Source: a virus (lineage: Duplodnaviria; Caudoviricetes). From it: DNA of 64,000 nt. The translations under genes were made by a program, and so were the position numbers. The stretch covers positions 1 to 64,000 of the IMG/VR virus record IMGVR_UViG_3300021400_000885. One strand, given 5' to 3'. Position 1 is the stretch's first letter. Each line of letters opens with the position of its first letter. Below, in pieces: positions 1,069 through 18,686 of this stretch. The notes beneath the pieces were generated by a model, which searched no databases, was not told the origin of the DNA, and saw nothing but the letters and a program-made list of their open reading frames with translations.

Positions 1069-1256
1069 TAAATGTTTTCTCTATAATAATTGAAATTATT
1101 TTATATAGATAGAAAAATTTCATTTGTTATTTTATAATTTTTTATTTAGTTTCCATATATAAATAATTGATTATTATTTTTAACGTTTTAAAACATTATT
1201 ATATTAATATTTTTAATATAAATTAAAATTTATTTTTTTAAAATTTTCCCCCCTTT

Positions 1257-1292
1257 AAAAGTGGGGGGGGGGGGGGAGAAAACTCCTCCACT
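1257..1292 (-). terminator. Phage intrinsic terminator corrupted by a poly-G run (junction)
   Basis: aaaagtgg(G)n-gag aaaa ctcctccact: the right arm ctcctccact would pair with agtggaggag, but the left arm is replaced by a G-run; lies just downstream of ORF 1334-1735. Confidence 0.5.
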
Positions 1293-5460: not shown

Positions 5461-5468
5461 CAAATATA
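5461..5468 (-). promoter_or_regulatory. Bacteroidetes sigma-A -7 element TATATTTG upstream of portal
   Basis: caaatata on plus strand = TAnnTTTG on minus, 18 nt before the portal ATG. Confidence 0.55.
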
Positions 5469-11134: not shown

Positions 11135-12070
11135 TTAGAATTTGATTCCTCCAAATGCGTGTTTAAACTTTGTAGCTGCTTTTGCAAAGGCTGCTTTCTT
11201 TCTCATTGCAGTGGAAAAGGCATCTGGATGGGCAGATACATAAGATGCAAATTCCTGCACTCCCATATTATGTTTAGTAGCTGCTGCAGTAAATGTTCCT
11301 TTCTTTGATGGGTCAATATGAATAGAGCCTCCATGTGCTCTTGAACCTCCTCCAAAAGGACCTTGAAAGTACATTCCTAGTGGAAGCATATTGGCTATAT
11401 GATTTGATTGTACTGGTGCTTGTGGAATTCCCTGCTTGAAAAGGTTTCTTTCATAGTCCCTTCTTATTCTCAGTCCTGGATTTTTCTTATCATTGTATCC
11501 AGCATCCATATTAAGTATTACATTCTCCCAGTCTTTATTAGCTAAAGCTTCCTGAAGTTTTGGATGCTTGTTTCTATATGATGTTTCTCCTACATTATAA
11601 TGATAGGATAGTAATGCATCCCTTTGATTTTGTGATAAAGAATTCCAGTTTGGAGTATCTTTAGCAAGAATAGCAACTCTTTTAGCCAAGGAGTCTGCAA
11701 AGTATTTATCTGCTTGAGCTCTTGTTATTCCATTTGGAAAAAGCCTTTTAGCTTCTGGTCCAGTAAACCCATATCCAATTGTAGGTATACCATTGCCATC
11801 AAGATACCAATTAGGTCTAAATGCTTCAGTGTCTTTTATATACTTAATAATATCTTCACTTGGAGTGTATGTGTCTTTACTACCTCCATTAGCATAAGTA
11901 TATGAGACAGGTCTTCCAAAAGTATCAGTTGCTTCCTCAAGGGAAGTGTTAAAGTCAGCAAGCTGTGAGTCATATATATTCTTCATATCAGAAAGAGAAG
12001 TCACTCCGTTTCTCCTCATGATATTCATAAGCTGTGACTTTTGTGCAATTGTGAGATTATTCCAAGACAT
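11135..12070 (-). CDS. GH24 lysozyme fused to crAss-type small domains (likely virion cargo)
   Basis: TEAFRPNWYLDGNGIPTIGYG (E-x8-D-x5-T triad), DALLSYHYNVG, GLRIRR; C-terminal IHIDPSKKGTFT domain; TATATTTG element at 12091-12098. Confidence 0.85.
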   Translation of the reverse strand: MSWNNLTIAQKSQLMNIMRRNGVTSLSDMKNIYDSQLADFNTSLEEATDTFGRPVSYTYANGGSKDTYTPSEDIIKYIKDTEAFRPNWYLDGNGIPTIGYGFTGPEAKRLFPNGITRAQADKYFADSLAKRVAILAKDTPNWNSLSQNQRDALLSYHYNVGETSYRNKHPKLQEALANKDWENVILNMDAGYNDKKNPGLRIRRDYERNLFKQGIPQAPVQSNHIANMLPLGMYFQGPFGGGSRAHGGSIHIDPSKKGTFTAAATKHNMGVQEFASYVSAHPDAFSTAMRKKAAFAKAATKFKHAFGGIKF

Positions 12071-12115
12071 AATTGTGTGATTTATTGGCACAAATATACA
12101 CAATTATATAATATT

Positions 12116-12218
12116 AAAAAAGCAGGTGAGTTTCACAACTAACCTGCTTGCCACACTAATAATCATCAAAAACCTACATGTCAGAAAAGAATCTTTTGTT
12201 CGGCTTTTTCCGTAACAC
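12116..12218 (-). ncRNA. Candidate antisense small RNA (promoter - anti-start-codon segment - UGUGAA hairpin/terminator)
   Basis: TATATTTG at 12224-12231; body complementary to aataatcatcaaaaacctacATGTCAGAAAAG; 3' hairpin 12120-12149 with UGUGAA loop followed by a U-run. Confidence 0.6.
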
Positions 12219-12247
12219 CCATGCAAATATAGAGATAAATTTTTATA

Positions 12248-12335
12248 AAACAAAATAAGCACACTTCACAGCGTGCTTATTTCTAAAATCTTTAGCCCTC
12301 TCATTTCTATGAGAACACTTCAGTGCTATGGAAAA
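12248..12335 (-). ncRNA. Candidate antisense small RNA (same architecture)
   Basis: TATATTTG at 12341-12348; body complementary to ...tttctATGAGAACACTTCAG; 3' hairpin 12253-12282 with UGUGAA loop and U-rich tail. Confidence 0.6.
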
Positions 12336-12355
12336 CACTACAAATATAGTAATTA

Positions 12356-12826
12356 TTATTTAGAATACACAGCTTCAAATGTAACTTTTAACTCTTTTCT
12401 CTTCTCCTTATCTCCTTTCCAGAGCATTTCTGGGTTAATTAAAAAGTCTCCTTGAGATTCAACTTTTTCTCCATTTCTATTTGTATAGTACACTTTTGAA
12501 AGAACTTTTGCATCAACGAGTTGATTAATAGCATTATAGAATCCTGCTCTTGATATGCCAAGCTTTTCTATAATTTCTGCTCTTTTCCCCATAGATATAG
12601 ACACTTTTCCAGTATTGACATATGTCTCTTCCATTAAAGCGTGTAGTACTTTTATAGGGATTACTCCTTTTATATTATACATCCACTGCACATAGTTTAT
12701 AAACACAAAGTAGAAATTCTCATTATCAGAATTGTGTTTAAACACTTTTCTAATAGTGGTAACTCTGTCATTACCAAACTCATCTTTTACAGTAGTTTCT
12801 ACTGATTCTACATAACCTTTTGACAT
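12356..12826 (-). CDS. RepL-like winged-HTH protein
   Basis: LGISRAGFYNAINQL HTH and FLINPEMLWKG motif typical of RepL-like proteins; TATATTTG element at 12861-12868. Confidence 0.7.
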   Translation of the reverse strand: MSKGYVESVETTVKDEFGNDRVTTIRKVFKHNSDNENFYFVFINYVQWMYNIKGVIPIKVLHALMEETYVNTGKVSISMGKRAEIIEKLGISRAGFYNAINQLVDAKVLSKVYYTNRNGEKVESQGDFLINPEMLWKGDKEKRKELKVTFEAVYSK

Positions 12827-14654: not shown

Positions 14655-14716
14655 TTTATATGTCTTGTTCATCTTTTTCACTTTAGTTCTGATGTGAATC
14701 ACAACTAAAGATTTTT
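14655..14716 (+). ncRNA. Candidate antisense small RNA with UGUGAA hairpin
   Basis: tgtcttgttCATctttttca (antisense to tgaaaaagATGAACAAGACA), then hairpin 14681-14710 with TGTGAA loop and T-run. Confidence 0.45.
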
Positions 14717-16817: not shown

Positions 16818-16825
16818 TATATTTG
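16818..16825 (+). promoter_or_regulatory. Bacteroidetes -7 promoter element for the tRNA/sRNA cluster
   Basis: TATATTTG ending 4 nt before the 16830 stem. Confidence 0.6.
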
Positions 16826-17789: not shown

Positions 17790-17873
17790 GGTTACTGTAC
17801 AACATGCTGTAACCCATGAAGTTTTACTTTTTGTACATTAAGTGTACATACTGTTGTGAAATATTATGTACAC
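17790..17873 (+). ncRNA. Candidate antisense RNA with UGUGAA hairpin filling the Ile-Arg spacer
   Basis: aaccCATgaagttttactttttg, then gtgtacata..TGTGAA..tatgtacac hairpin. Confidence 0.55.
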
Positions 17874-18434: not shown

Positions 18435-18686
18435 ACTTAGTTTTTATCCATAACTAAGTTATAAAAACCTTGTTTCATTCGGACTAATCTTGCTGTGAAG
18501 TAAGAAAAAGTCAAAAGTACTCTTACATTAAACTAATTGTTAGTTGGTAGCTCCATGCGGTTTAAAGACAATGTAAGAGTACTTTTTTATTATGTCATTT
18601 CCACAAGGGAAGAGGATAATCCTCATTAAACTATATTTTCTTGCTTGCGCTATCTAATCTAAGGTTTCAGTTCACCCTCTTCCCTT
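18435..18686 (+). ncRNA. Three tandem candidate antisense RNAs behind tRNA-Pro
   Basis: Unit 1: CAT at 18449 plus TGTGAA hairpin 18482-18512. Unit 2: 17-bp stem 18513-18586 enclosing CAT at 18554. Unit 3: 11-bp stem 18605-18686 enclosing CAT at 18624. Confidence 0.55.

Follow-up and report, generated by a model that had tools for sequence, protein, structure and literature searches.

Two adjacent candidate small RNA genes with a Bacteroides GibS/FopS-like layout downstream of the RepL-like gene of a crAss-like gut phage

Several short sibling small RNA (sRNA) genes arranged in tandem, each with its own promoter and terminator, are present in Listeria (LhrC1-4); these belong to an unrelated phylum, differ in chassis and seed from the RNAs considered here, and are chromosomal rather than viral. 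In B. thetaiotaomicron, FopS comprises 14 RNAs with sigma-ABfr promoters, a single-stranded 5′ seed and a terminator, which act as translational repressors of SusC-like transporters by pairing beside the start codon, and which are bound and antagonised by RbpB (PMC11697453). One FopS copy was reported in a Caudovirales phage that targets Bacteroides (PMC11697453). The same seed is employed by GibS to pair with the start-codon regions of two other mRNAs, BT_0771 and BT_3893 (PMC7366714). Sigma-ABfr, the housekeeping sigma factor of Bacteroidota, has a −7 box that reads TAnnTTTG (PMC7366714). Among phages, the T4-type PeSLs (promoter-early stem-loops) are terminator/promoter cassettes that mediate shuffling (PMC2839356, PMC4122927).

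The locus described here lies in the IMG/VR virus record IMGVR_UViG_3300021400_000885, which has 103,909 bp and represents a whole 104-kb phage. The window analysed is the stretch from position 1 to 64,000 of that record, and coordinates refer to it unless another source is named. The phage is a crAss-like gut phage, with the hallmarks of this group: giant genes of 3395 and 1372 aa, a tRNA cluster and a GC content of 34%. When GenBank phages were searched by megablast, blastn and tblastn, no relative was found of the region, of the RepL-like protein or of the array of another phage. Long poly-C/poly-G hairpins with runs of 11-15 G were observed near both ends of the record (window 1244-1276, plus strand; G000 103840-103880, plus strand); they may be linked to the genome termini, or be a packaging or replication signal.

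The initial annotation of this DNA had proposed two self-contained sRNA genes, each of which starts from its own promoter of the host type and ends in a U(GUGA)A terminator. Every element it quoted was recovered at its minus-strand position, and the proposal proved to be the best-supported explanation of the locus: the architecture recurs, the stems covary and arrays of the same type occur in unrelated phages. We infer transcription from the promoter boxes, termination at the hairpins, pairing with start codons and use of the loop as a protein handle; the locus is fairly likely to consist of two adjacent, independently transcribed small non-coding RNA genes built on the chassis of Bacteroides GibS, FopS and BTnc231.

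Architecture of the locus

Both units are on the minus strand, in a gap of ∼252-285 nt between a RepL-like gene and a lysozyme gene. The upstream gene (12356..12826, minus strand) encodes a RepL-like replication initiator of 156 aa (Pfam RepL PF05732, E 1.1e-5), and the downstream gene (11135..12070, minus strand; ATG at 12070) a phage lysozyme or endolysin of 311 aa (Pfam Phage_lysozyme, 4e-18; PHROG 7 endolysin, 2.5e-31). The stop codon of the RepL-like gene is 7 nt ahead of promoter box 1, which is followed on the minus strand by a 57-nt body, hairpin 1, a U-rich tail, box 2, a 74-nt body, hairpin 2, U6 and box 3.

The three boxes all read TATATTTG on the minus strand. Boxes 1 (12341..12348) and 2 (12224..12231) are exact matches to the TAnnTTTG consensus used to define the −7 box of sigma-ABfr, and a box stands at the position of box 1 in all relatives; box 3 (12091..12098) belongs to the lysozyme gene and lies 21 nt 5′ of its ATG. 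The window contains 12 exact copies of TAnnTTTG, against 6.6 expected. Those checked against the ORF list (at 5461, 12091, 12861, 22379 and 31961, and at 16818 before the tRNA cluster) are just upstream of co-oriented genes. A TTTG in the tail of terminator 1, 21 nt upstream of box 2, could serve this box as a −33 element.

Unit 1 (12245..12338, minus strand) is predicted to produce an sRNA of ∼92 nt with a seed at the 5′ end, a 7-bp hairpin in the interior and terminator 1; the alignment to the GibS model begins exactly at 12338. Unit 2 (12113..12222, minus strand) is predicted to produce an sRNA of ∼107 nt, in which a 5′ body lacking the GibS/FopS seed precedes terminator 2. Compared with shuffled sequences, the folds rendered z values of −5.0 (unit 1) and −2.3 (unit 2), and consist of a loosely structured 5′ part followed by the terminator. 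Terminator 1 (12252..12283, minus strand) is a 14-bp hairpin with a U-GUGA-A loop at 12270-12265 and a U-rich tail, UUGUUUUAU, that reaches ∼12245. Terminator 2 (12120..12149, minus strand) is a 12-bp hairpin with the loop UU-GUGA-AA (UUGUGAAA; 12137-12132), a U.C mismatch at the fifth pair and U6 after it. A covariance model of the hairpin scored them at 39.0 and 39.9 bits, respectively. A promoter motif and a terminator are thus present and no conserved ORF is found on either strand, which is how an intergenic sRNA gene is canonically defined, the transcription start site and the 3′ end being predicted in this case.

T-tailed hairpins with a GUGA loop occur three times in the whole 104-kb phage. 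Only the two that belong to the units precede a −7 box, at +20 and +21, and these are also the only terminator-like hairpins of any kind in the genome with a −7 box after them. The possibility that UGUGAA is simply the general terminator loop of the phage was discarded, since its other strong terminators use AAA, UAA, UUA, AUAC, AAAAC and similar loops. The hairpin covariance model found only five sites in this genome, none of them in the last 40 kb, and just a single weak one in crAss001; all five UGUGAA hairpins are co-oriented with local transcription.

UGUGAA-capped hairpins were also observed outside the locus. One of them, which has no U tail (17842-17873, plus strand), is 4 nt upstream of tRNA-Arg(UCU). 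In crAss001, a cultured and distantly related phage, a like hairpin with a different stem is directly upstream of tRNA-Arg (MH675552, ∼100102-100131, minus strand). The placement is therefore conserved, which suggests a processing or stability element of the tRNA precursor. Another hairpin (14681-14710, plus strand) has a T tail, lies 30 nt before a small ORF and has no −7 box upstream, and a short one with a 6-bp stem (18488-18505, plus strand) follows tRNA-Pro.

The 5′ seed and its relation to GibS, FopS and BTnc231

The first copy of the seed in unit 1, GUGUUUUCCAUAG (12326..12338, minus strand), begins 2 nt after the −7 box, that is, at the predicted +1, and is unpaired in the MFE fold. 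It is identical at 12 of 13 positions to the 5′ block common to the Rfam consensus sequences of GibS and FopS, which start with GUGUUUUUCAU(A/g)G. A second copy, GUGUUCUCAUAG (12307..12318, minus strand), is the place from which the FopS model aligns (from 12318, with 18.5 bits); its 3′ part is paired in the internal hairpin. The first copy is the sole match with at most one mismatch in the window, where 0.21 such matches would be expected by chance, and it is meaningful only through its register at the predicted +1 and through its recurrence in other units. Among 27 non-redundant unit bodies, some of which are homologous to each other so that the independent units are fewer, TCATA was found in 12 (a value reached in none of 500 dinucleotide shuffles), T[TC]CATA or TCATA[AG] in 11, at 11-33 nt past the box (2.3 expected; maximum of 7 in 1000 shuffles), and seed matches of at least 10/13 in six (1.0 expected; maximum of 5 in 500 shuffles).

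When Rfam was used at its gathering thresholds, only tRNAs were found in the window. When unit 1 was compared with 4227 Rfam families using lax filters, the best Bacteroides matches were GibS (27.1 bits), BTnc231 (19.9-21.2 bits) and FopS (18.5 bits). All scores were far below the cut-offs for membership, which are 115 bits for GibS (RF04182), 56 bits for FopS (RF04319) and, with matches of 17-21 bits, 80.4 bits over a 154-nt model for BTnc231 (RF04180); the units are therefore relatives of the FopS-like chassis rather than members of these families. The GibS alignment of unit 1 involves only the first ∼40 and the last ∼45 positions of the model, the middle being deleted. In whole-genome searches with prefilters, GibS did not return the unit-1 match, which was lost at the prefilter, and FopS rendered no match on the locus; the FopS model was likewise without a match at E ≤ 1 when five further phage records with arrays were searched. 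BTnc231 rendered a single match in the whole genome, on this locus (17 bits, E 0.025). It aligned end to end with two adjacent units of phage L061 (35.1 bits, local E 7.8e-6), and 35.1 bits were also obtained for L097 and L118.

The phage locus resembles FopS in its sigma-ABfr promoters (exact TAnnTTTG boxes) and in its Rho-independent, T-tailed GUGA-A hairpins, the terminator loop of FopS being GuGaa, and it shares with FopS the single-stranded 5′ GUGUUUUUCAU(g/A)G, the lack of a second domain and the presence of multiple sibling copies. A single-stranded seed block containing R1 at the 5′ end is a feature of unit 1, but not of unit 2. In contrast to FopS, which has ∼71 nt, unit 1 has ∼92 nt, its seed is present in two copies with a U-to-C change, and there is an internal hairpin. 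The phage units also follow one another head to tail, each terminator tail being fused to the promoter of the next unit; their loop is flanked by U and A (often by UU and AA), the stem often has a Y.Y mismatch, and many sibling units, unit 2 among them, lack the seed. With GibS, unit 1 has in common its first 13 nt (12 of them identical), an unstructured 5′ seed and an intrinsic terminator at the end, but it is much shorter, lacks the R2 region and the central domain, and GibS is transcribed from a promoter of motif PM2. BTnc231, an RbpB-bound sRNA candidate of B. thetaiotaomicron, has UUUUUUUCAUAG at its 5′ end and two C-GUGA-G hairpins, the second of which is the terminator; however, it is annotated as one RNA of 154 nt, while each phage half has its own promoter. 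The BTnc231 consensus has the look of a fusion of two phage-type units, in which a seed, a GUGA hairpin and a U run precede a second body and a GUGA terminator; BTnc231 may derive from a tandem pair of phage or mobile origin.

Unit 1 is best read as a diverged, phage-borne sRNA of the GibS/FopS type. It probably works like FopS and is distantly related to it, not being a FopS itself. The element is of a known functional kind, that of the Bacteroides sRNAs made of a seed plus a terminator, in a phage-specific, arrayed and diverged form.

According to the initial annotation, the opposite strand of each unit reads as a leader followed by ATG. For unit 1 this acquired a meaning, since the quoted tttctATGAGAACA is the complement of the second GibS/FopS-like seed copy; for unit 2 it did not, as there is no seed match, nor any target among the phage's own genes beyond chance. 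When the starts of the phage's own genes were analysed as targets, RNAduplex energies were no better than those of shuffled sRNAs, and complementarity anchored at an AUG extended over 11-12 pairs at most, which is close to the chance expectation for 315 ORFs. No RRM-type (RbpB-like) protein is encoded by the phage.

Conservation and exchange of the units in other phages

Homologues of the RepL-like protein were found in 30 cases in public assemblies, and the DNA was compared in nine distinct contexts (L002/L003, L012-L020). In all nine, where RepL is 57-97% identical, one to three units of the same design stand directly after RepL: a −7 box, a body of 30-75 nt, a hairpin capped by U-GNRA-A, and a U tail that continues into the following −7 box. 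The units are absent from a more distant RepL phage (L007, 32% identity). When 17 hairpins were aligned, the loop was GUGA in 15, GAGA in one and GCGA in one, within a nearly invariant U-GNRA-A; the stems of the relatives have no sequence in common, although the loop is kept. Pairing was possible in 87.7% of the cells of the alignment, and double changes were seen at 12 of the 12 pairs. The covariation score was 0.99, compared with 0.21 in shuffles (reached in 0 of 500) and with no more than 0.33 when the register was slid. In 11 of the 17 hairpins, a pyrimidine-pyrimidine mismatch occupies the fifth pair from the loop. Since the stems covary and the loop is nearly invariant, selection acts on structure and loop but leaves the stem sequence free. 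The reservation made in the initial annotation, that the loop is also a plain GNRA tetraloop, was well founded: the GAGA and GCGA variants occur, and the same type of hairpin ends ordinary protein genes.

Some departures from this design were observed. In L013 (2030-2080, plus strand) there is a single unit, with a hairpin capped by A-GUGA-U instead of U-GUGA-A and an AT-rich spacer of ∼80 nt before the next promoter; the tetraloop, rather than the closing pair, is therefore the constant part. In L018 (2150-2460, plus strand), the second unit after RepL is a longer promoter-led stretch (∼300 nt) without a UGUGAA hairpin, which leads into a small ORF; this is a homologue of the 52-aa ORF situated ahead of the lysozyme gene in L002 and L020. 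Upstream of RepL, the opposite strand has a 16-bp terminator-like hairpin with a C-GUGA-G cap, the loop context of host BTnc231, in L002 (2268-2231, minus strand), L003 (1735-1698, minus strand), L015 (708-671, minus strand), L016 (768-731, minus strand) and L019 (790-753, minus strand); the stem changes that distinguish L019 from the others are compensatory.

Unit 2 shows no difference from that of L017 over 133 positions, and two from that of L012, although the flanking genes differ by 2-10% or more; the RepL DNA of L017 is only 60-78% identical, and identity jumps to 95-100% at unit 1. In L012, RepL is 92-98% identical. The body of unit 1 has been replaced in both L012 and L017 and its terminator has been kept, which indicates mosaic exchange at the units. 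Unit 2 has no detectable relatives outside near-identical genomes, and its conservation may therefore merely reflect recent shared ancestry. The gene that follows the array varies as well among the relatives (lysozyme, lysozyme2, amidase, SLT or small ORFs).

A wider search was performed with the pattern TTGTGAAA-N7-16-TTTT-N0-8-TATATTTG, which combines loop, tail and box. In IMG/VR it was present in more than 118 contigs, and 60 of 135 matches were true hairpins, with many different stems. In a species-level collection of cellular genomes, only nine of 120 matches were hairpin-like; two or three of them were strong and lie on small MAG contigs, so that the junction could be discarded as a feature of host genomes. 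The contrast between these two values indicates that the composite is a phage feature. The junction is used in two ways: as a terminator of ordinary genes, e.g. after ORFs of 263 and 664 aa, and in arrays of two to four short units in unrelated phages (L044/L042/L062, L061, L127, L097, L118), which adjoin ferritin-like, DUF6549 or portal genes. The occurrence of arrays of two to four units in such varied contexts makes an accidental 'empty cassette' unlikely.

The mosaic breakpoints in the gap, the exchange of the gene downstream of the array and the use of the same junction after ordinary genes would all fit a punctuation element like the T4 PeSLs, which are documented as shuffling cassettes (PMC2839356, PMC4122927). 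The functional element would then be the junction of terminator hairpin, U tail and promoter, which would insulate genes and offer a patch of homology for modular recombination, the 60-100 nt between junctions being filler with no function of its own. The likeness to PeSLs extends to the combination of a terminator hairpin with a strong host-type promoter, repeated in variable regions, flanking exchangeable cargo and found at mosaic breakpoints. However, PeSLs flank ORFs and are conserved over ∼100 bp, whereas the phage slots are short, non-coding and seed-bearing, and their conservation is limited to the loop, the tail and the −7 box (∼20 nt); an identity of only ∼20 scattered bases offers little for homologous recombination. 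Recombination between two junctions would leave a single chimeric junction behind and would not create an empty slot whose size is conserved. Arrays of two to four slots recur in unrelated phages. The bodies are enriched in a seed motif at a 5′ position, the GibS/FopS block stands exactly at the start of unit 1, and no product of recombination was seen. As a full account of the locus this explanation is rather unlikely; a PeSL-like property is regarded as a second, compatible property of the junctions and not as an alternative to the sRNA reading.

Other explanations and the possible role of the RNAs

The position of the region directly upstream of the endolysin gene raised the question of whether it might act in cis on the timing of lysis. 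The tandem terminators would stop early or middle transcription coming from RepL, until a phage factor bound to the loop permitted read-through into the lysozyme gene, as lambda N does on the GNRA-like boxB. A conserved loop on variable stems, with the Y-Y mismatch at the fifth pair in 11 of 17 hairpins, is indeed typical of hairpins recognised by proteins. Nevertheless, the lysozyme gene is preceded by a −7 box of its own, 21 nt ahead of the ATG, a new promoter after each terminator would make the control of read-through pointless, and arrays are also found before unrelated genes and at operon ends with no co-oriented gene downstream (L044). This explanation is thus very unlikely.

The units adjoin the RepL-like gene in all close relatives, are AT-rich and have strong promoters, as might be expected of a replication origin or of a site that supplies RepL with primer transcripts, where tandem promoters open the DNA or provide RNA primers as at the T7 and T4 origins. 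The same arrays, however, stand beside ferritin-like, DUF6549 and portal genes in other phages, which excludes an origin function specific to RepL, and the distant RepL phage L007 has no units; moreover, the terminators would release the transcripts after 90-105 nt, and the loop, being specific to one orientation, points to a role played by the RNA. An origin is accordingly a most improbable explanation.

The claim of the initial annotation that neither unit has a sense ORF has to be qualified. Sense ORFs exist mechanically: one of 31 aa from a GTG at 12338, one of 52 aa from a GTG at 12262, both of which cross terminator hairpins, and one of 13 codons. The claim does hold for coding capacity in the case of the 31-aa ORF, since L012 has the conserved CATAGCA motif of unit 1 in another reading frame. 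The 13-codon ATG ORF (MGVTEKAEQKILF; 12222-12181, minus strand) is at the extreme 5′ end of unit 2; it begins 1 nt after the −7 box and would therefore be leaderless. On the opposite strand, a protein was discarded as a candidate: an ORF of 75 aa runs across the L127 array, but is broken in the homologue L061. When the units and their relatives were compared, no conserved ORF was found on either strand. That the units encode micropeptides, be it the 13-codon ORF of unit 2 (intact in L012 with one V-to-I change), the 31-codon GTG ORF of unit 1 or opposite-strand mini-ORFs, is hardly credible: apart from the hairpin crossed by the unit-1 ORF, the frame change of its motif and the interruption in L061, the substitutions in the hairpins preserve structure and are not synonymous, and most units of the relatives have no ATG.

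If the sRNA reading is followed, the two units would be siblings with a common plan, namely a sigma-ABfr promoter of the host, a 5′ region that is mostly single-stranded, and an intrinsic terminator capped by GUGA. In the host RNAs, the seed block pairs across the start codon of the target and blocks the initiation of translation, the known targets being SusC-like glycan transporters and others. The unit-1 RNA would most likely do the same to host, and possibly phage, mRNAs with a start close to CUAUGRAAAAC; start regions complementary to its seed would read roughly CUAUGGAAAAC. It may also compete for host RbpB. Unit 2 would be a sibling with the same promoter and terminator; its 5′ body is different, so its targets should be different as well. 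The phage probably uses small RNAs of the host style to reprogram its host.

A broader proposal, which we put forward tentatively and consider possible though doubtful, is that Bacteroidota phages, the crAss-like phages included, carry interchangeable arrays of sRNAs directed against start codons. Each RNA would have a 5′ guide centred on UCAUA(A/G), the complement of AUG and its context, and the U-GUGA-A terminator with its Y.Y mismatch would be the common handle for a dedicated RNA-binding protein of host or phage, translation being silenced by mimicry of the FopS network. Were this the case, SusC-like transporters or receptors could be switched off, leading to superinfection exclusion or to a redirection of resources, or RbpB could be titrated.

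FopS and GibS, together with RbpB, form the only well-studied post-transcriptional network in Bacteroides, and control SusC-like glycan transporters, outer-membrane proteins that are central to colonisation of the gut. The U-GUGA-A loop on free stems, common to host FopS and BTnc231, points to an unrecognised recognition element in the biology of Bacteroidota sRNAs. Diverged sRNA copies of the kind proposed here, often in arrays, would, if real, explain the spread of FopS-type RNAs between genomes, about which the authors of the FopS study speculated (PMC11697453). The crAss-like phages count among the most abundant viruses in the gut of humans and animals, and how they manipulate the host after infection is almost undescribed; if the present reading is true, such RNAs would be a concrete and testable way by which gut phages rewire the nutrient uptake and the surface composition of their hosts.
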